In this document: one piece after another, positions 42,154 to 53,627 of the stretch | Layout: each line of letters starts with the position of its first letter | How positions within the stretch are numbered: the first letter of the stretch is position 1 | Source: Clostridia bacterium | GTDB lineage: Bacteria > Bacillota > Clostridia > UBA1212 > DUPL01 | NCBI GenBank assembly: GCA_050951325.1 | Contig: JBMNIW010000001.1 | Location: forward strand, 129,229-193,228 | Direction of reading: 5' to 3' | Length of the DNA stretch: 64,000 bases | Position numbers and translations under genes: made by a program | The notes under the pieces: model-generated | Told to the model about the DNA's origin: nothing | Databases searched by the model: none | The model's input: only the letters and a program-made list of their open reading frames with translations

Positions 42154-42939
42154 ATGAAAAATACCTTAGTCAAATGTTTAAATTTATTGATTGTGATAAT
42201 GCTGCTTTCGACATCGGGATGTAAAAACAAAGATGAAGTTGAAAACTCACCCACTCCATATATTACGCCTCTGAAGACTGCAGAACCCACCAGTTCACCA
42301 ACACCAGTACCAAGAGAAATATATGATGGACCGGATTTCGGAAAAAAAGCAGAAATAGAAGTTGATGGGCACCAAATGGATCCAACCGAACGACCTAAAG
42401 AGTTAATGGTGGATGAAGATCCTGATACAAGATGGGCGTTCAAGCTGTTCCCAACCGATGTCATATTCGATTTCGGCGCACCCTTTGTACTTAGTAAAAT
42501 TATTTTTACCTGGCTTAATCTAGAGCGCGAATACTACTACGAAGTATATGCAAGTGTGGATAATAAAAATTGGGAACTAGTAGTTGACCGTTCACAAGAC
42601 TCGGAACCGTATACAACTGTTGATGATTTAAAGGGTGTTTATGCCAGATATCTTTGCATAACACTTATAGACAACTCCGACCAAAACGGATGGGCGGCTA
42701 TTAACGAAGTGGATATTGAAGGTTTCAGGTTCGGTGACTCTGATTATGATGTTGACCTTGAGAATAAACGAATCAAGGTGTCTGAACCATGTGATGTTGA
42801 TACATTTATCAACAACTGCAAACTGGGCAGACTATATGAGGCTTCTGTCCAAACAGATGAAGAGGAAATTAAAGACGGAGATGTTTTGGTTGTAAAATGT
42901 GGCGATGTTGATTTTGAATATGTAATCGTAGTGAATTAA
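42154..42939 (+). CDS. Discoidin-domain lipoprotein, intact copy.
   Basis: Lipobox STSGC. Same architecture as 34094..34858. About 97% nucleotide identity to 44540-44880 over ~340 bp. Confidence 0.7.
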   Translation: MKNTLVKCLNLLIVIMLLSTSGCKNKDEVENSPTPYITPLKTAEPTSSPTPVPREIYDGPDFGKKAEIEVDGHQMDPTERPKELMVDEDPDTRWAFKLFPTDVIFDFGAPFVLSKIIFTWLNLEREYYYEVYASVDNKNWELVVDRSQDSEPYTTVDDLKGVYARYLCITLIDNSDQNGWAAINEVDIEGFRFGDSDYDVDLENKRIKVSEPCDVDTFINNCKLGRLYEASVQTDEEEIKDGDVLVVKCGDVDFEYVIVVN

Positions 42940-44086: not shown

Positions 44087-44873
44087 ATGAAAAAAATTAT
44101 AGCAAAATGCATAAGTGCACTAATGGTACTGGCACTCCTTTTATTACGGGTTGTGACAAGGAAGAAACGTTAAACACACCCACGCAATCTTCCCCTGCAA
44201 CGCCTAGTACAACTGTCCAGCCTACCATCTCGCCAACACGCGAACCTGTTGAAATATATGATGGACCGGATTTCGGAAAAAAAGCTGATATAGAAGTAGA
44301 AGGACATCAAACGAGTCCTAGCGAACGACCCAAAAAGTTTATGGTTGATGGCAATCCTCTTACAAGATGGGCATTTAAACAGTTTCCTACAGACGTGTTC
44401 TTTGATTTTGGCGCACCTTTCATATTAAGCAAGATACATTTAACATGGCACGAGGTTGGACGCACCTACTATTATGAACTGTATGCCAGTTATGATGGAG
44501 AGAAGTGGATATGCTTGCAGATCGTTCGGAAGACTCAGAACCGTATACAACTGTTGATGATTTAAATGGTATTTATGCCAGATATCTTTGCATAACACTT
44601 GTTGACAACTCCGACCATAATGGATGGGCGGCTATTAATGAAGTGGATATTGAAGGTTTCAGGTTCGGTGACTCTGATTATGATATTGACCTTGAGAATA
44701 AACGAATCAAGGTATCTGAACCATGTGATGTTGATACATTTATCAACAACTGCAAACTGGGCAGACTATATGAGGCTTCTGTCCAAACAGATGAAGAGGA
44801 AATTAAAGACGGAGATGTTTTGGTTGTAAAATGCGGTGATGTTGTTTTTGAATATGAGATTGTAATTGGATAA
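44087..44873 (+). pseudogene. Frameshifted copy of the discoidin-lipoprotein gene.
   Basis: RBS GGAGGTGATTTAAA plus ATG 44087. The signal peptide (MKKIIAKCISALMVLALLLL) is in a different frame from the lipobox TGCDKEE (~44150). A second shift near 44500 (DGEKW | VDMLADRSEDSEPY). Each is a 1-nt frameshift relative to the 42154 copy. Confidence 0.65.
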
Positions 44874-44888
44874 GCGCAGTTAGTAAAA

Positions 44889-44928
44889 GATAACGGGACG
44901 TGGCAACACACGTCCCATTATCTTTGAT
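44889..44928 (+). terminator. Intrinsic terminator.
   Basis: GAUAACGGGACGUG-6 nt-CACGUCCCAUUAUC followed by UUUGAUUG. Confidence 0.6.
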
Positions 44929-45098
44929 TGCGCAGAATGCTGTAGTCATCCAACAATACAGGAGGTAGTTATTGGTCTTGTTTTTATCCAAACAGGTAGC
45001 GATACTTATTCCCCCTAATGCACTCTGCAAGTACATATTTTTGCCGTCCTAAAACCAATGCGCATCGCCTACCAAGGTGATTTCAAATATTTCATATA

Positions 45099-45424
45099 TA
45101 TTATACTAAATTAATCGGATTTTTATAATATTTTTTTATCACTTTTTATAATTTTTGTACAGAAATCGGAACTCTTTTTTATTTGTAAATTTTATGTTAA
45201 CACCCTTGATTATGACGTTACGTAATGTTTTATACTATCAGGGAGGTGATAAATAATGAATGAAGACTGCTTGTTTACAGTAGGAGAACTTGCAAAAAAA
45301 TGTGGAGTTACTGTGCGAACGCTGCAATACTACGACCAATGCGGATTACTTTCGCCCAGCCGCTACTCGGAAGGTGGAAGACGCCTTTACAGTATTGATG
45401 ATGTTTTGCGTTTGCAGCAAATCC
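45099..45424. repeat. Left copy of a 326-bp direct repeat (target duplication) flanking the IS1634-like composite.
   Basis: Identical to 51049..51374 at every position compared by eye. Carries the merR promoter region and codons 1-56. Confidence 0.85.
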
Positions 45425-45453
45425 CCGTCTTCCGTCATAAGGTACTAGTATAA
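45256..45453 (+). pseudogene. 5' fragment of the merR-like gene (codons 1-56), reading into the IS end.
   Basis: MNEDCLFTVGELAKKCGVTVRTLQYYDQCGLLSPSRYSEGGRRLYSIDDVLRLQQI is identical to the N-terminus of 51206..51988, then diverges (PVFRHKVLV*). Confidence 0.75.
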
Positions 45454-45620
45454 TCCGTAATTCCAAAATAGATATGCATTGTTATTAACTTATAAACCTT
45501 GGAAAACCTACATTTTATTTGTGTTTACACCAGAAAAATCTGGTGTTTTTTTCTTGCAAAAAAATTTTATGCATGATATAATAATAGTACTTCATAGTAC
45601 CCTGAAAACGGAGGATTAAC

Positions 45621-46441
45621 ATGGCATACTTTTTACGTAAAGATAAAAGAAAAAATGGTTTATATCTTCAAATGTACGAAAATTATTGGGATAAGAATTT
45701 GAAACAGGCAAGAACAAGACATATTTGTTCCTTCGGATATGTTGAGGATCTTGTTTCCGACGATATTCCTGATCCTATTGCATAACAACTTCAATCAAAA
45801 TCGAAGAACATAATTATGGTCTTTACATTTATTACAATAAGACAAATGCAGCTGCAGAAGAAAATAGACTCTTCGATCATGTAGACAGGTTAGAAAAAGA
45901 AATCATAAAGAAAATGAAGCCGGTGCGCCACAACCGCTATACAAAGTATTATACTATCGAAGAGGCTAAAGAAGGTGAGATTCGTTCTTTTGAAAGAAAC
46001 TATGACAAAATTGCAGAAGCTTGCGAGCTATTAGGTGTGTTTTGCTTCTTAAGCACTGAGCAAGGAATGTCCCCTGCAGAAGCGCTAGAACTATACAAGA
46101 GACGAGATGAAATTGAAAAGATTTATGATGTATCAAAAAATGAACTTGATGCAGATCGTTTTTTGGTTCAAACGGATCAAACTGCAAAAGGCAAACATTT
46201 TGTTCATTTCTTAGCGCTAATCTTATGGGCTGACTTGCAAAGAAAAGTTCGTCAGTGCGATAACAAACCCGAGAAGACAATAGAGCGCATGCTTTGTGAA
46301 ATCAAGAAAATCAAATATATTGAATACGAAAGTGGCCGAACTCTTGCTGAACCTCTTACACGTAAACAAAAGGATATTTTAGACTGCTGTGGTATTGATA
46401 AGAATACTTTTGTAGAAAGAATAGTAGCGGGTGTTATGTAG
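45621..46441 (+). pseudogene. IS1634-type transposase remnants: N-terminal 54 codons (45621..45785) and a C-terminal DDE fragment of a second copy (45914..46441).
   Basis: MAYFLRKDKRKNGLYLQMYENYW...IPDPIA* resembles IS1634-family TnpA N-termini. The 175-aa fragment has the YKRRDEIEKIYDVSKNEL (Y-R-E-K) C-terminal motif. Confidence 0.5.
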
Positions 46442-46661
46442 ACTATAAAAGCAACGGGAATTCAGGTTAAATAAATCAAGTTTGCTAGGTTTATTCCGCT
46501 TTCTTGGCTTTCCTTTATATCCTTCATGATATTTCTTTACCGTCCTCCAATCCATATTATATTTTCTACCAAGAGCTGCATAGTTAGGTTTAATCTCTAA
46601 GTTATCCATAATTGTCAGTTCTCCTTGTAAATTGTATTGCATATTGATCCACCTCCATAGA
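46379..46661 (-). pseudogene. N-terminal HTH fragment of another transposase (IS21/IS30-like?) preceded by a 41-nt IS-end sequence that recurs at 48841..48881.
   Basis: MQYNLQGELTIMDNLEIKPNYAALGRKYNMDWRTVKKYHEGYKGKPRKR. The shared 41 nt are TACTTTCTATGGAGGTGGATCAATATGCAATACAATTTACA. Confidence 0.35.
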
Positions 46662-47097
46662 AAGTATACCAATATATTCAAAAAGACAAAATAAGAATGT
46701 AGGTTTTACGACAATTTTATTTTGCATTTTTCCTACATTCTTATTATAAACTTTGCAAAAGACCTTGGGACGCTGTCCCAAACCCTGTCCTCGCCAGAAG
46801 GCAGCCGGTCTATTATTTAGACCAGCAAGCAAGAGGATAATAGGTTATCTTTGTCAAGGGTCAAGATAAATTCGCTTTCGCTCCCCCTTGACAAAACTTT
46901 TAAGGAGTCAGGGCTATTTTAGTGTACCCTTCTTTATAAAAAACATTAAAAAGAAAAAAGACTTCATTTACTGGAAAACAGGTCATTTTAGGCGATTAAA
47001 CAGCTGAATTTACCACAATAATGTATGGGATATTTCTAAATAAAACACCATCACTATTTATTACAACTTTTCCGAAATTATTCATGTAAAGTAATTA

Positions 47098-47126
47098 TTG
47101 ACAATGTGTTAGATTTCGTGTATTAT
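47098..47126 (+). promoter_or_regulatory. Strong consensus-like sigma-A promoter inside the AT-rich cargo.
   Basis: TTGACA - 17 nt - TATTAT. A second TG-extended -10 (TGATATAAT) lies 10 nt downstream. Confidence 0.4.
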
Positions 47127-47612
47127 AAAAACAGTGATATAATACGAGTTATATAGATGCAGTATATTTGAAATAAAACTAAAAGTGGGATTAGTGTAAG
47201 GATTCGAAAAATGTAATTATATTGTAGTGTCATATAGATTAAAAAAACTTGAGAATTTAATTTTAATGATTAGGTGGATTTTGGTGCTATTCCAGATTAT
47301 GCAAAGGTCATCGCAAGCCTGATGCTTATACCACATTTAGGGTGACTTACTGCATGAAAATTGTAGAGGGGAATTATCAGCCTGTAATTCATATGCAGTA
47401 TTACTTGTCTGGTTCTAAGTACATGGTATGATAATAATAAAAGGAGTTGCAAGTATTTTAGGGAACTAGGTTGTTTCTGATTAGGTGTTATACAACGAAA
47501 GAAAACTCAGAGAAAACAGTCTAGTAGTACAACTAATTTGTAGTTTTCACACGATGGAAAAGCCTCTTTAAGAAAGTAAAAGAGTTTATTAGTAAAAAGG
47601 AGAGATTTACTC

Positions 47613-48305
47613 ATGTATATTCGGAAAGCTATTGTTATTATTTTGATGCTTATTATGACATTTACTTTAGCTACTACTGCAAAAGAGAAAGATAATGTTG
47701 ACGATATTTTTAAAGAGGCAGAAGTAGCATATTCGTGGTTTACTAGTTTCTGTATTCATACGACAATTGGTAAATTAGATTTTGAAAACCCACCTTTAGT
47801 ATTAGACGGTACTAAATACTATAAGCTTATCGATGGCATAACAAACATGGATAACCTAAAAAGTCATTTATTAACTTTGTTTTCACCAGAGGTGGTCGAG
47901 AATCTTCTTTCAAGCGAGATTGATGGCCATAAATATTTTATAGAGAAAGATAGAAACTTATACTATACATTAGATGCGATAGGGTTAAATGATTATACTA
48001 TTGGCGAACGAAAGCTAACTATCAAGGGAGAGTATGGTAATAGTATAACTTGCGAGCTTGAATATAAGGTTGTTGACGATGATGGAAATATGTACAAAAA
48101 AGAGTACATTGAGTATCAACTTGTAAAGAACGATTCAGGTAATTACGTTTTCACCAGTTTTACTCTTCCTGCTTCAAAATGGACTTTTTACGAGAATAAC
48201 CCACAATCCGATGATACTGTATCAAAGATTGGTTTTATTATTATACTAGCTGTAGTTACTGTGATCTTTAAAAGATACAACTATCTATATATTAATTCTA
48301 ATTAG
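47613..48305 (+). CDS. Hypothetical secreted protein with a C-terminal TM anchor, AT-rich cargo gene.
   Basis: Signal MYIRKAIVIILMLIMTFTLATTA. Tail IGFIIILAVVTVIFKRYN. RBS AAAAGGAGAG. Codon usage is visibly more AT-rich than the surrounding genes. Confidence 0.5.
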   Translation: MYIRKAIVIILMLIMTFTLATTAKEKDNVDDIFKEAEVAYSWFTSFCIHTTIGKLDFENPPLVLDGTKYYKLIDGITNMDNLKSHLLTLFSPEVVENLLSSEIDGHKYFIEKDRNLYYTLDAIGLNDYTIGERKLTIKGEYGNSITCELEYKVVDDDGNMYKKEYIEYQLVKNDSGNYVFTSFTLPASKWTFYENNPQSDDTVSKIGFIIILAVVTVIFKRYNYLYINSN

Positions 48306-48974
48306 CGCTTATAAAAATGATACTATATCTTCTTAATGAGTGAGCAAAGGGTTTTCAAAACTCTTGATTTTGATGAAGGGAACTACCTAGTCCCTTCGTT
48401 TTACTGTGTGTCGGCATGACACAAGCCTTGCAGGTGAAAGTCCTGCCACAGGTATAAAGTGTACCCCTTGTCAAGGACATTTCGGGTTTTTGTTATTCCG
48501 GTCACACAAGTATTATGTTATACTAATGTTGTTTTACCACAGGAGGGATTTAGCCTCTGTTCTCAAAAAAAGCTCATAGTTATGCGGTTTTGATGTTAAA
48601 ATTGGTATGTTGCAAATTCGGGCTAATTTTTGATAGAATAAAGCAAAACTAAAAGACAAGGAAGAAACATTTTGAGGAATAACTACTTAGCAAAATTAGT
48701 AAAATACATGAAAGAAGTCTATGATATTGAAAAAGGTTTAAATAACCTTGCCGATGGAAGAGTAAGAAACATGCTTACACAAGTTTCATTACACACAAGG
48801 GTTTGTATCATCATATTACTGATGATGTACCGGATGAGTTTACTTTCTATGGAGGTGGATCAATATGCAATACAATTTACAGTACCTTGAAAATTTAACA
48901 CAAACCTCCAATATTCATATGTAATGTGGTATAATATATACATACACACTACATATAGATTTAAGGAGAAATTC

Positions 48975-49469
48975 ATGGCTTTTGTTGAAAATAACAGTAA
49001 CCAACTAACTTTTAATGACAGTTTTTTAGGCTTAACTCAGCGTGAAAGAAATTTTTTACTAAAGTCTTGAGCAAAACCTTTTGCAGAACTTATTTTCCCT
49101 GCAATCGATGAAAAGCCCTTTATTGTATTATACAGTGATAATCCTGCAAGTCGTTCTAATACACCAGTTAACGTGATTATTGGCTTGTTGATTCTTAAGG
49201 AGTACTTAGGATTATCTGATGATGAAGTTTTAGAATCCTTGTTGTTTGATGTCAGATTCCAATATGCACTTCATACAACAAGTTATGAAGAACAACCTAT
49301 GAGTGATAGAACACTTAGTAGGTTTAGAGCAAGATGTCTCGCATATGAGAAGGAAACAGGAGTAGATCTGATTAAAGAATGCATTAATTCACTATCAGGA
49401 AAGATTGCAGCATTGCATATTACACCGAGGTCGTTAGGCAGAAGGAAATTGAGCGTAAAAAAATGCTAA
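48975..49469 (+). pseudogene. IS1182/IS5-type transposase N-terminal (DUF772-like) fragment with a premature stop.
   Basis: MAFVENNSNQLTFNDSFLGLTQRERNFLLKS*(TGA)AKPFAELIFPAIDEKPFIVLYSDNPASRSNTPVNVIIGLLILKEYLGLSDDEVLESLLFDVRFQYAL...SDRTLSRFRARC. Confidence 0.45.
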
Positions 49470-51013
49470 ATGAGGATATGCGTCCAAGAGCATTTGGGGA
49501 TTGTGTTGAAAAAAATGTTGGATATTTCCTGTTCCATTCCTTGATTGAGGAACTTGAGGTCAAGGAAGTAATAGATATTCTCGCCTCTGTCTGTAAGTTT
49601 CGTTTTAGTGTTTACGACCTGCTTACCCAACTTATCTATTCCAGGATCATATGTCCTTGCTCGAAATCCAAGACTGTTTCGGATGTTTTCCCACTCTTGT
49701 ATCGGTATTCTCCGATATCTGAAGACCAGGTTTATGACGGACTTTTCTTTATTGGCGGATCCTATAAGAAGTATATAGAGTTATTTAACAAACAATACGA
49801 GAAGTTCTACAAAAGAAACTACAATAGAGCTTATTTTGATTGTACGAATTATTACTTCGAGATAGACTTTCCGAAGGATGACAAGCAGAAAGGTCCTTCA
49901 AAAGAAAATAGCAAAAACCCCATCATTGGGCAGGCTATGCTTCTTGATTCGGACCTTGTTCCGATTAGTATGCAAATGTATCCGGGAAACGAGTCCGAGA
50001 AGCCATATATAAGGAAAATAATCGAAGAGATGAAGCAGAAATACAATGTGACCGGTAAGACTGTTCAAATTGCAGACAAGGGGCTTAACTGTGCCCGTAA
50101 CATATATGCTGCCGTTGTAGAGGCTAATGACGGATACATCTTTACAAAAGCCATTAAAGGTAGAAAACTAAGCAATAAAGAGAAAAATTGGATCCTGCTC
50201 GAGAATCAAGACAATGTATTTACCGATTATACAGACGCTAAGGGAAACTTGTTATACCGCCTGAAGAGCTGCGTTGATACTTTTGAATATTCCTTCGAAG
50301 AAACTGATCCTGATACCGGCGAGAACAGGAAAATCACTTTCTCGGTAAAAGAAAAGTGCGTAGTTTCATACAATCCATGCCTTGCAAGGAAGCAGCAGGC
50401 TGAGATAAAAAAGATGGTAGACAAAACTCTCAACTACGTTACCCATAAACAGTTGGTAAAAGAAGAGATAGGAGATGCTTCAAAATATTTGAAAGTCACC
50501 AACAAAGACAAACACGGCAGGAAAATTGAGCCTATAATTGAAATAGACACAGCCAAAGTTGAAGAGGACATGAAATTAGCCGGGTACAATCTTATTGTCA
50601 CATCCGAAATCGACATGACGCCGAATCAGATATACGAGGCATATCACGGACTATGGAAGATTGAAGAGAGCTTCCGAATCTCTAAATCCTATCTTGACGC
50701 AAGACCTGCTTATGTACAAAAGCAAGAAACAATTTACGGGCATTTTCTTATATGTTACCTTAGTTTGTTTCTTTTACGTATATTGGAAATCAAGTGTTTC
50801 AAAGACAAAGTTAATGCCTATGACATCATAACATTCATACGTGACTTCAGAGTCGTGAAGAAGGATGACAACACGTACATAAACCTTTCCCGCAATCGAA
50901 GTGCTAATGAAAAGATTAAGTCTGTTACTGGGATCAATGTATTGGATGCTCTGTACTTAACAGAACGAGAACTTGACAATTTATTTGATTCTACTATCCT
51001 AATCGACTACTAA
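49463..51013 (+). CDS. IS4-superfamily DDE transposase body, IS1634-like; lacks the ~70-aa N-terminus, which appears to sit at 45621..45785.
   Basis: D..T..YYFE (NRAYFDCTNYYFEID), QIADKGLN, and the C-terminal YEAYHGLWKIEESFRISKSYL signature. 516 aa. Confidence 0.7.
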   Translation: MLNEDMRPRAFGDCVEKNVGYFLFHSLIEELEVKEVIDILASVCKFRFSVYDLLTQLIYSRIICPCSKSKTVSDVFPLLYRYSPISEDQVYDGLFFIGGSYKKYIELFNKQYEKFYKRNYNRAYFDCTNYYFEIDFPKDDKQKGPSKENSKNPIIGQAMLLDSDLVPISMQMYPGNESEKPYIRKIIEEMKQKYNVTGKTVQIADKGLNCARNIYAAVVEANDGYIFTKAIKGRKLSNKEKNWILLENQDNVFTDYTDAKGNLLYRLKSCVDTFEYSFEETDPDTGENRKITFSVKEKCVVSYNPCLARKQQAEIKKMVDKTLNYVTHKQLVKEEIGDASKYLKVTNKDKHGRKIEPIIEIDTAKVEEDMKLAGYNLIVTSEIDMTPNQIYEAYHGLWKIEESFRISKSYLDARPAYVQKQETIYGHFLICYLSLFLLRILEIKCFKDKVNAYDIITFIRDFRVVKKDDNTYINLSRNRSANEKIKSVTGINVLDALYLTERELDNLFDSTILIDY

Positions 51014-51048
51014 GGTACTATGTTTTGAGTTGAACGACGGAAGTCAGG

Positions 51049-51374
51049 TATTATACTAAATTAATCGGATTTTTATAATATTTTTTTATCACTTTTTATA
51101 ATTTTTGTACAGAAATCGGAACTCTTTTTTATTTGTAAATTTTATGTTAACACCCTTGATTATGACGTTACGTAATGTTTTATACTATCAGGGAGGTGAT
51201 AAATAATGAATGAAGACTGCTTGTTTACAGTAGGAGAACTTGCAAAAAAATGTGGAGTTACTGTGCGAACGCTGCAATACTACGACCAATGCGGATTACT
51301 TTCGCCCAGCCGCTACTCGGAAGGTGGAAGACGCCTTTACAGTATTGATGATGTTTTGCGTTTGCAGCAAATCC
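51049..51374. repeat. Right copy of the 326-bp direct repeat (part of the intact merR-like gene and its promoter).
   Basis: Identical to 45099..45424. Confidence 0.85.
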
Positions 51375-51988
51375 TGTTCTTCAAGGGCTTTGGATTCACG
51401 CTTGAAGAAATACGCAATAGATTAATGACAATAAACTCAGCCCAGGATTTTGCCAAATTACTTGCAAAACAAAAAAATGTCATCGAGGAACAAATAAGAC
51501 ATTTAGAGAAGATAGTATCTCTTATGGATGAAACCATAGAGAGAATAGGCCCTAGTGAGAACCTCTCAATAAACATGGTTATGGCAATATTGAAAGCTGC
51601 AAAACAAAATGACTTTTATTCTCTGGTAATTGACAGTATAGACAAGAAATACATGGATTCCTTTTTATTAAATGAAGCCAAAACCGACTTAAAAGATTGG
51701 GACTCTCTTTTGACAAGATTAAAAGAATTACATAAGAAAGATGCAGACCCTTTTGGACAGGAAGCAGAAAAACTGGCAGAAGACTGGTGGAACAGGATAA
51801 TGGAATTGACAGGAGGAGATCCTAATTTGATTGCTACTGTATTTAGTGCTGGAGAGTCCTTGCCCAACTGGCCGGAAGAAACTGATGACATAAAGACTGC
51901 CATTGAAAAGATCCTATCCCCTGCTCTTGGCAGTTACCTGCTAAAACAAGGTATCGTCCCACCGGGCATGGAGGATGGTTTCAAATGA
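51206..51988 (+). CDS. MerR-family transcriptional regulator with a C-terminal effector domain.
   Basis: N-terminal MerR HTH FTVGELAKKCGVTVRTLQYYDQCGLL, coiled-coil region, 260 aa. Confidence 0.8.
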   Translation: MNEDCLFTVGELAKKCGVTVRTLQYYDQCGLLSPSRYSEGGRRLYSIDDVLRLQQILFFKGFGFTLEEIRNRLMTINSAQDFAKLLAKQKNVIEEQIRHLEKIVSLMDETIERIGPSENLSINMVMAILKAAKQNDFYSLVIDSIDKKYMDSFLLNEAKTDLKDWDSLLTRLKELHKKDADPFGQEAEKLAEDWWNRIMELTGGDPNLIATVFSAGESLPNWPEETDDIKTAIEKILSPALGSYLLKQGIVPPGMEDGFK

Positions 51989-52890
51989 CTCTGGCAGTTC
52001 AAGTAAACTCGTTGGTAAAGAAATACGGTTCAAATACGGCTGTCGACAATATCTCTTTTAATATATATAAAGGCGAAGTCTTTGGTCTGTTGGGACCAAA
52101 TGGAGCCGGAAAAACCACAACTCTTGAAATTATTGAAGGTCTGCGCATGCCAACATTGGGAGAAGTTTATGTAGAAGGCCTAAGTCCAATAAGAGATACA
52201 AAAGAACTAAGAAAAGTCCTGGGAGTTCAATTGCAGATATCCACGCTGCCTGAAGTCATGCGTGTTGACGAGGCAATGGAACTTATTTGCACCTTCAAAG
52301 GCATAAAGCCCAGGTACGATTTGCTTGAAAGGTTCGGATTGGTAAAACAAAAAAAGCAGCAATATGGAAAACTCTCTACAGGACAAAAGAGAAGACTTCA
52401 ACTTGCCTTGGCTATCTGTGGCAATCCCAAAGTTGTAATACTGGATGAACCAACAGCAGGTGTAGATGTTCAAGGAAGGGCGCAGCTTCATAATGCCATT
52501 AGGGAACTTAGAAAAAATGGCGTTACAGTAGTTATAGCGACTCATGACATGGCAGAGGCCGAAAGCTTGTGTGACAGAATCGCCATAATCATAAACGGCA
52601 AACTTGCAGCTTTGGGAAGCCCCGATGAAGTAACAGCAAAAGGCAGCTTTCAAACAAGAATAACCATCCGCACCAAGAAAGGAAATTTAACTTCACAAGG
52701 TAATATTAAAAAAGCCACTTTTGCAAGCCAAAAGGAAAACAATGCCTTATGGCTCTGCACGGATACAGCTTCTGCAATAATTGAAATGCTGTCTGCCATT
52801 GATGCAGATGATGAGGTTCTTGTTCTGAGAGTGGAAAGACCGTCTCTTGAAGAAAGATTCTTGGAACTTATGGAAGGAGGAAACTCATGA
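51985..52890 (+). CDS. ABC transporter ATP-binding protein.
   Basis: Walker A GPNGAGKTT. Signature LSTGQKRRLQLALAI. Walker B ILDEPTAGVD. ATGA overlap with merR. Confidence 0.9.
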   Translation: MTLAVQVNSLVKKYGSNTAVDNISFNIYKGEVFGLLGPNGAGKTTTLEIIEGLRMPTLGEVYVEGLSPIRDTKELRKVLGVQLQISTLPEVMRVDEAMELICTFKGIKPRYDLLERFGLVKQKKQQYGKLSTGQKRRLQLALAICGNPKVVILDEPTAGVDVQGRAQLHNAIRELRKNGVTVVIATHDMAEAESLCDRIAIIINGKLAALGSPDEVTAKGSFQTRITIRTKKGNLTSQGNIKKATFASQKENNALWLCTDTASAIIEMLSAIDADDEVLVLRVERPSLEERFLELMEGGNS

Positions 52891-53627
52891 AGGCGTTAAT
52901 AAAACAACTCAGCATACAATTGAAAATGGATGTCAGGGACAAAGGAACTTTAATGGTATTCTACTTGGTTCCCCTTGGATTCTTTATTGTGGTAGGTGCT
53001 GTATTTTCTTCTGTAAATCCGGAGATTAAACCAATCCTGTCTGCTACCATGGCTATTTTCTCAACTACCATGGGTGCTGTTATTGGAATACCACCTGCAA
53101 TAGTCAGAATGAAGGAATCAGGTGCAATACGCGCCTATCAGGCAAGTGGCATACCCATGATCAGTGTGGTTATCACTACAGGACTAAGTGCTTTAATACA
53201 TCTTTCCATAGTGTCAATTGCAATATCCTTGACAGCACCTTTTTTGTACGGGGCAAACATGCCTGAATCCATCACAGGTTATGCGGTAACCCTCCTGTTT
53301 CTTCTCTTATGTAATGTTTCTATTGGTCTTTTGTTAGGTGCAGTAGCTAAAAACACACAAACTGCCACTTTGCTTTCACAAGCTGTATTCATGCCTTCTT
53401 TGATGCTCAGCGGAATCATGTTTCCAACAAGTCTGCTTCCAACACCATTACAGATGATTGGAAACCTCTTTCCCGCAACTTATATAAATCATGCCTTCAG
53501 AGGTTTGGCCTACCGTTTCGACACTGAAATTGCCCCACACACCTCTATGGCTATAATTATGTCAGTTACAATATTAACTCTAGCCTTGTCCATTCGGTAT
53601 TTGGGCAAAATCACAAGTGTAAGATAA
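52887..53627 (+). CDS. ABC-2-type transporter permease.
   Basis: Six predicted TM segments. ATGA overlap with the ATPase gene. Confidence 0.75.
   Translation: MKALIKQLSIQLKMDVRDKGTLMVFYLVPLGFFIVVGAVFSSVNPEIKPILSATMAIFSTTMGAVIGIPPAIVRMKESGAIRAYQASGIPMISVVITTGLSALIHLSIVSIAISLTAPFLYGANMPESITGYAVTLLFLLLCNVSIGLLLGAVAKNTQTATLLSQAVFMPSLMLSGIMFPTSLLPTPLQMIGNLFPATYINHAFRGLAYRFDTEIAPHTSMAIIMSVTILTLALSIRYLGKITSVR

Follow-up and report, generated by a model that had tools for sequence, protein, structure and literature searches.

How a regulatory gene comes to have its promoter and first codons twice, with 5.6 kb of inserted DNA in between, is the question raised by a merR-family locus in a 64,000-nt stretch of a Clostridia genome (assembly GCA_050951325.1, contig JBMNIW010000001.1, positions 129,229 to 193,228). 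This whole stretch is called the window, and all coordinates follow its numbering. The host lineage is an uncultured Clostridia or 'Clostridiaceae' metagenome-assembled genome (MAG) of low GC content from an anaerobic digester. An original prediction, made from the letters alone, had proposed that an IS1634-like insertion sequence (IS) copied the 5' region of merR and was itself split by nested DNA. Public assemblies were scanned with the exact MerR protein, which gave ten loci. The sequence comparison makes it very probable that an IS1634-family element, designated IS-A, duplicated 325 bp when it inserted into merR in a single step, and that a nested block later broke its transposase gene.

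As had been predicted, positions 45099-45424 recur at 51049-51374 as an exact repeat of 326 bp. Identity ends on both sides, and neither the repeat nor the insert was found elsewhere in the window. The insert ends directly abut the repeats, with CCGTCTTCCGTC... on the left and ...GACGGAAGTCAGG on the right, and they are indeed the imperfect inverted termini described at first: they align gap-free as CCCGTCTTCCGTC / CCTGACTTCCGTC, share 11/13 positions and form 13-bp inverted ends of the type CC(C/T)G(T/A)CTTCCGTC. The length of the duplication itself needs a small refinement. The left flanks of IS-A terminate in C in all 13 distinct cases, and at two sites the native target base differs from C; IS-A therefore starts at 45424. 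The true duplication is 325 bp (45099-45423 / 51049-51373), and the 326th base is the first base of IS-A, matched at 51374 by coincidence. The left copy yields a 5' fragment of merR and the right copy the intact gene, again in agreement with the prediction:

45099 to 45423, plus strand: left copy of the target duplication, with the merR promoter, the ribosome-binding site (RBS) and merR codons 1-56; exactly identical to 51049-51373 and single in empty sites.
45256 to 45453, plus strand: truncated merR' open reading frame (ORF) of 65 aa, with 56 native residues including the MerR helix-turn-helix (HTH) and 9 residues from the IS end.
51049 to 51373, plus strand: right copy of the target duplication, running on into intact merR.
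51206 to 51988, plus strand: intact merR, 260 aa, with matches to Pfam MerR_1, MerR and MerR-DNA-bind.

Whether the repeat preceded the insert can be read from related loci. Seven contigs from other samples (L002, L003, L005-L009) have an empty site, with one 326-bp copy and contiguous flanks, which are 99.3-100% identical except for a diverged upstream stretch in L005. The repeat was thus made by the insertion, and the ancestral repeat, which the original prediction had named as the outcome that could overturn it, did not materialize. The filled site, structured as in the window, occurs in at least four independent assemblies, namely L001 (a 68-kb JGI contig), L004, L057 (a 404-kb ENA contig) and L058, so that a one-off assembly artefact is unlikely. 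A repeat-induced mis-join of short reads is in fact scarcely credible as the source of the duplication. All the data are assemblies, and metagenome contigs with IS are sometimes chimeric or truncated at IS ends (L047; L012 vs L013; L010, which begins exactly at 51049). However, the identical structure was obtained by different pipelines (JGI, ENA metaSPAdes and NCBI MAG) in contigs of up to 404 kb, and the 65-aa merR' product (P0248) is recorded on 13 contigs of other assemblies. Both repeat/IS junctions are also unique sequences that need real reads, and the same architecture is present inside single long contigs at other sites.

The insert consists of two parts of one element, which are separated by the nested block:

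45424 to 45784, plus strand: left part of IS-A, with the left inverted repeat (IRL) CCCGTCTTCCGTC (45424-45436); collinear with positions 1-360 of the intact copies L012-L021 and L045-L053.
45527 to 45546: terminator-like hairpin in IS-A, conserved in L011.
45554 to 45582: promoter-like site in IS-A, conserved in L011.
From 45621, plus strand: transposase codons 1-54, in the left part of IS-A.
49420 to 51048, plus strand: right part of IS-A, with transposase codons 55-585 (stop 51011-51013) and the right inverted repeat (IRR) ...GACGGAAGTCAGG (51036-51048).

Without the block, IS-A measures 1990 bp (1989 bp by the ends first proposed). Excision of 45785-49419 joins 45621-45784 to 49420-51013 in frame and gives an uninterrupted ORF of 585 aa, so that the suggested rejoining of the transposase succeeds. 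The N-terminus at 45621-45785 and the body at 49463-51013 had been located correctly, but the frame resumes at 49412/49420 and not at the ATG at 49463. The body ORF alone (49463-51013, 516 aa) scores 295.1 bits on the NCBIfam IS1634 profile (NF033559, cut-off 100 bits), and the rebuilt protein 299.9 bits over profile positions 2-475 of 483. The next families, IS4 and IS701, remain below 35 bits. Many short metagenome contigs encode an intact protein, P0001, to which the rebuilt transposase is 99% identical, and about 20 contigs with intact copies align over positions 1-1989 of the rebuilt element at 99.4-99.5% DNA identity. Many of them break at or near the ends of IS-A, as repeats present in many copies are expected to do. 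At least one contig with intact IS-A originates from a biogas-fermenter metagenome. An intact relative in L011 has a gene of 583 aa, and the small ORF 45621-45785 corresponds to the first 54 residues of its product.

The criteria applied are those of the IS1634 family (ISfinder; De Palmenaer et al. 2008). The length of IS-A falls within the family range of 1500-2000 bp. Family members have the terminal consensus C-----YT, and the arginine of the YREK signature is missing in most of them (PMC2266710). In IS-A, the IRL reads CCCGTCTT... and the reverse complement of the IRR reads CCTGACTT..., with C1, T7 and T8 in both, and YHGLWKIEESFRISK in the rebuilt protein fits Y-(2)-L-(3)-E-(6)-K, where L replaces the R of YREK. 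The AT-rich duplication of 5-6 bp that characterizes the family is absent, with no 5-6-bp repeat at any IS-A junction. This does not exclude membership, given the atypical behaviour known for IS1634 and IS1549. As placed by a family-level hidden Markov model, the insert is an IS1634-family element, and a new one with atypical long duplications. The prediction that transposition of this family made the repeat thereby gains support from the profile scores and from the long repeats found elsewhere. The L011 relative, 84% identical, lies on contig CAYLYN010000294.1 in a MAG labelled Rikenellaceae, and one member of the IS-A cluster is labelled Fervidobacterium; these labels suggest either that the element has spread horizontally or that contigs with a multicopy IS were binned wrongly.

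Long repeats of different lengths flank IS-A at other sites. Empty sites were examined for the merR locus only, and the duplication lengths elsewhere were read from the flanks. In L045 (21.9 kb) an intact IS-A lies between 427-bp repeats with one mismatch, which duplicate part of an EamA gene, and in L046 (110 kb) the element is flanked by a 53-bp repeat. In L050 and L013 the right end of the IS is followed by 96 bp and 223 bp, respectively, and then by an IS left end. This layout is read as a collapsed repeat-flanked IS, the alternative being two tandem copies with that spacer. Left and right flanks paired across samples (L014/L012 and L019/L016) overlap by 104 and 176 bp, and a 68%-identical relative in L023 (34.8 kb) has an 85-bp repeat. 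Two further long contigs with relatives, L022 and L024, were unusable, as the IS runs off the contig end in one and the right end was not found in the other. L011, the only locus found when genome contigs were scanned with the transposase, was set aside as uninformative on duplications, having no flanking repeat. The variety of long repeats thus supports long variable target duplication as a property of IS-A itself. This matches the published behaviour of IS1634 and IS1549, whose direct repeats vary from 8 to 514 bp (PMC2266710), as the original prediction had stated in general terms.

A repeat of this kind could also arise in two steps, if two copies of IS-A inserted 325 bp apart in sister or related chromosomes and the IS copies then recombined homologously. 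IS-A is multicopy in populations, so substrates for recombination exist, and a patch of nine single-nucleotide polymorphisms (SNPs) at 50113-50357 hints at exchange between IS-A variants. Nevertheless, such an origin requires two independent, close hits in the same orientation at every site that has a repeat of 53-427 bp, and there are at least seven such sites. Neither short duplications of 5-6 bp at any junction nor, among the merR loci, a strain with the IS at one position alone have been seen, and a single step suffices in view of what has been published on IS1634 and IS1549 (PMC2266710). The two-step origin is accordingly rated very improbable.

The single-step insertion, preferred here, would have proceeded as follows. 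IS-A (1990 bp) would have transposed into the 5' region of the merR-family gene, with its two ends joined to the target 325 bp apart. By analogy with staggered-cut duplication, repair of the single-stranded stretch between the joins would then have duplicated the 325 bp. Later, the block of 3627 bp would have entered the transposase gene at codon 54/55 with a duplication of 8 bp, leaving an IS-A with intact ends and without its own transposase. Both in the window and in L001, no difference separates the two copies of the 325 bp. Between the window IS-A and the intact copies there are only 10 differences, nine of which are clustered in 245 bp (50113-50357); both events are thus recent. At eight of the nine clustered SNPs, L001 carries the alleles of the intact copies. 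The patch hints at exchange between IS-A variants, and could have been formed by gene conversion or by read mixing in the L001 assembly.

Several points weigh against this history. Transposition was not observed, and the mechanism of long duplication is unexplained even for the type elements, the family review of 2008 offering no mechanistic model for long repeats (PMC2266710). A clean intermediate, with intact IS-A between both merR repeats, was not recovered, and the order of events is argued from parsimony. One candidate, L047, has an intact IS-A at the merR right junction and was set aside because the 25 bp to the left of the IS bear no relation to the merR repeat; it is possibly a chimeric assembly, an example of the mis-joining to which multicopy IS are prone. 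Most of the supporting copies derive from short-read metagenome assemblies, in which such mis-joins can occur. The relative in L011 has no flanking repeat, and the near-neutral effect on merR described below is itself inferred.

The nature of the nested block is a second question. The block (45785-49411) is 3627 bp long, has a GC content of 33% and comprises remnants of several IS:

45777 to 45784, plus strand: left copy of the 8-bp duplication ATTGCATA, an octamer that is single in the intact IS.
45785 to 46466, plus strand: 3' remnant of a second IS1634-family element, IS-B, with an open frame from 45785, a stop at 46442-46444 and the IRR-like AACGGGAATTCAGG (46453-46466).
46467 to 46669, minus strand: IS21-family 5' fragment, with an ATG at 46642 and about 58 codons left, truncated by the right end of IS-B.
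46626 to 46669: left arm of a 44-nt inverted repeat, an IS21-like 5' end 98% complementary to 48838-48881.
46670 to 48837, plus strand: AT-rich segment of 2168 bp between the inverted IS21-like 5' ends, with an ORF of 230 aa (47613-48305).
48838 to 48881, plus strand: right arm of the 44-nt inverted repeat, an IS21-like 5' stub truncated by the left end of the IS1182-like fragment.
48884 to 49411, plus strand: IS1182-like 5' fragment, with IRL ACCTTGAAAATTTAACAC, an ATG at 48975 and about 146 codons.
49412 to 49419, plus strand: right copy of ATTGCATA.

The IS-B remnant, first described as a second IS1634-like C-terminal fragment, scores 108 bits on the NCBIfam IS1634 model (profile positions 322-482) and is 31% identical to IS-A. 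Its relatives in the database are short or pseudogenised only, with a longer pseudogenised one in L055. The start labelled 'IS21/IS30-like' belongs to the IS21 family. The fragment itself is too short to score on family models, but over its 58-aa N-terminus it shares 59-71% identity with the start of proteins of 401-538 aa, and the full-length homologues P0376, P0394 and P0395 score 192-229 bits on the IS21 model NF033546 (cut-off 160). The 230-aa ORF between the IS21-like ends has hydrophobic N- and C-termini, predicting a membrane-anchored product, and no family was found for it in Pfam, NCBIfam or PHROGs; the homologues retrieved are nearly identical to it. The inverted IS21 5' ends and the 2168 bp between them may be the wreck of a composite transposon. 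Upstream of this ORF, a stretch of 175 bp (47258-47432) is swapped for an unrelated 132 bp in L034 (1806-1937) and L032 (1-124).

For the IS1182 family, the criterion is an N-terminal DUF772 domain together with a C-terminal DDE_Tnp_1_6 domain. The fragment matches DUF772 with 37.8 bits and scores weakly on both the IS5 and the IS1182 models. A near-complete relative in L054 is 86% identical to it at the DNA level up to codon ~146, where homology ends, and its second ORF has IS1182 as best match with 94.7 bits, below the cut-off of 270. The TGG to TGA nonsense codon noticed in this fragment was borne out: the TGA at 49068-49070 is TGG in L001, L027 and L044, position 49070 being A in the window and G there. 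The TGA is thus a strain-specific nonsense mutation.

The original description of this region as a nested IS graveyard is right as to the IS remnants, but they do not form a simple stack of nested insertions; they arrived as one 3627-bp block with an 8-bp duplication. Both edges of the block lie inside coding remnants of IS elements, and the block has no terminal inverted repeats. Ten contigs (L034-L043) carry the same DNA in another setting, called context S, from 45783 rightwards, fused to the end of a 213-aa gene. At this junction only TA is common with IS-A. In L036 the 213-aa ORF lies at 229-870 with an 84-aa ORF upstream, and no match was found for either ORF in Pfam, PHROGs, plasmids, phages or viral contigs. 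The motif GACGGAAGT, the core of the IS-A end, is situated 24 nt before the context S junction, possibly by chance. Scans of metagenome contigs and viral contigs did not find the right edge of the block, the 44-nt arm or the S junction. L044 was considered as a third context for the nested DNA and rejected, since its match is bounded by N runs in the scaffold and is silent on the junctions.

Two explanations of how the block entered IS-A can be weighed. The one towards which the evidence leans slightly, although it falls a little short of an even chance, is that locus S, or another graveyard like it, served as the template from which the block was copied by illegitimate recombination or replication template switching at microhomologies of 1-2 nt. 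The return into IS-A would have taken place 8 nt upstream of the point of exit, and this would have left the 8-bp repeat. Locus S is continuous across the left edge, where the 213-aa ORF reads through and only TA is shared with IS-A. IS1182-like homology ends within ~1 nt of the right junction, and arbitrary break points within two IS remnants suit a process without transposase. Against copying, transposition is classically recognised by just what is seen here, a perfect duplication of 8 bp and a target that is restored exactly, and the right side of the donor was not recovered. To our knowledge, inter-locus template switches of 3.6 kb are also rarely documented in bacteria. A related possibility, that the right-hand ATTGCATA is part of the IS1182-like remnant and would thus mark a microhomology crossover, was rejected, as homology with L054 ends ~1 nt into the octamer.

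Alternatively, and with lower probability, the block might be a discrete non-autonomous unit that was moved in trans and inserted with a genuine 8-bp target duplication. The exact direct repeat at its flanks and the perfect restoration of the ORF on excision would be explained in this way, and the left edge is, within 2 bp, the point where block DNA meets a different neighbour in the ten context S contigs. On this reading, the right edge in S would be expected at 49411 too, with CAAGTTTA next to it as an 8-bp repeat. Such a unit is made unlikely by its edges, neither of which is a recognisable terminus, and by the absence of terminal inverted repeats. Only two contexts are known, with the right edge in S not recovered, and homology of the IS-B type may extend, weakly, a few bases past the left edge in S. 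Copying from a locus such as S is therefore slightly favoured.

Whatever its origin, the block has left IS-A without a transposase of its own. The broken gene shows the composite to be non-autonomous, and this part of the earlier verdict, 'probably no longer mobile', stands. Immobility does not follow, since both ends are intact and intact IS-A copies co-occur with the filled site in assembly ERZ2648087. No location of IS-A with the nested block besides the merR site was found in the assemblies looked up. A plasmid megablast with the whole region gave no match, and an Rfam search of 44800-51600 returned sub-threshold chance hits only.

What the insertion did to merR can be deduced from the duplicated stretch, which spans ~157 bp upstream of the merR start codon through codon 56. 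The intact gene heads a merR / ABC-2 transporter cluster (51985-53627) whose gene order is kept in all related loci. The promoter is as follows:

45206 to 45236, duplicated at 51156 to 51186, plus strand: merR promoter, with TTGATT (45206-45211), a 19-nt spacer and TATACT (45231-45236).

A spacer of 19 bp is a hallmark of MerR-regulated promoters, and the layout found here appears typical of them. The spacer contains the palindrome TTACGTAA, an operator that was likewise duplicated by the insertion. With promoter, RBS and first 56 codons all duplicated, the right-hand merR is complete and self-promoted. The left copy would drive only the HTH stub, running into the terminator-like hairpin inside IS-A, and the insertion was probably near-neutral for the merR / ABC-transporter cluster. 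At the right end of IS-A (51025-51057), TTGAGT/TTGAAC stand at -35 distance from TATTAT/TATACT of the target, a possible candidate for a hybrid promoter that reads out of IS-A toward merR. Upstream of the repeat, two overlapping ORFs (44107-44565, 152 aa; 44505-44873, 122 aa) have 83% DNA identity to part of a 261-aa F5/8-type-C gene (42154-42939) and look like a frameshifted paralogue of it. Split ORFs at the position of 44107-44873 are called in L001, L002 and L003 too.

The junctions provide some indication of how such targets are chosen. Right junctions were compared in the window (51049), in L012, L013, L016, L018, L045, L046, L048-L050 and L052, and in the relatives L011, L022 and L023. 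All but one of the distinct junctions (13/14) begin with T, eight of them with TAT. The left junctions have nothing in common beyond the first C of the element. The target site may thus be selected by the right end, with the left end joined some variable distance away. A more far-reaching reading is that the right end is T-directed (usually TAT or TTA, often a -10-like hexamer) and the left end free to join 53-427 bp downstream, the two strand transfers being uncoupled; separately, the nested block could be a new kind of terminus-less unit that inserts with an 8-bp duplication. This reading is improbable. Uncoupled strand transfers, if real, would be the first concrete handle on how IS1634-type elements create long duplications.

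Long variable target duplications are rare and have been published for only two insertion sequences, IS1634 and IS1549. IS-A adds a third lineage, and its hosts, digester Clostridia in which it is abundant and apparently active, are a new group for this behaviour. The natural empty and filled alleles, together with the repeats of 53-427 bp at seven or more insertion sites, constitute raw material for work on the mechanism. Although the insertion would be expected to split merR, the gene survives intact under its own promoter, with an additional promoter and an HTH stub beside it, so that such insertions into genes can be silent and create small segmental duplications. For annotation the locus is a warning, as the 65-aa 'MerR' and the ORFs of 54, 175, 98 and 516 aa are by-products of one insertion event. 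IS-A is not a new kind of system; the entry of the block and the asymmetric choice of target are the only parts that possibly lead somewhere new.

Among known systems, the Tn5 / Tn10 type of composite transposon offers a partial likeness for the block, in which two inverted IS21-family 5' ends bracket a 2.2-kb segment with one ORF. Unlike in Tn5 / Tn10, only 44-203 bp of each IS21 copy are left, with no transposase; the left transposase-proximal ends face the cargo, and the pair has no flanking target duplication. For IS-A itself, ordinary members of the ISGka5 type belong to the same family. Typical members produce AT-rich duplications of 5-6 bp (PMC2266710), and ISGka5 of Geobacillus kaustophilus, whose transposition was demonstrated experimentally, produces one of 6 bp (PMC8024623). 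IS-A and its 68%-identical relative instead have repeats of tens to hundreds of bp wherever both flanks are readable, except in L011. IS1549 of Mycobacterium smegmatis, likened to IS-A by its published description, shares the long variable target duplications, although its host is a high-GC actinobacterium. A further close parallel is the type element IS1634 of Mycoplasma mycoides subsp. mycoides SC. The host of IS-A is a digester Clostridia and not a mycoplasma, and its transposase gene holds a foreign block of 3.6 kb. Both elements nevertheless have a transposase of the family described by the NCBIfam equivalog model, a length of ~2 kb, short imperfect terminal inverted repeats, a large single transposase, AT-rich targets and long direct repeats that vary by copy, which in IS-A range from 53 to 427 bp.

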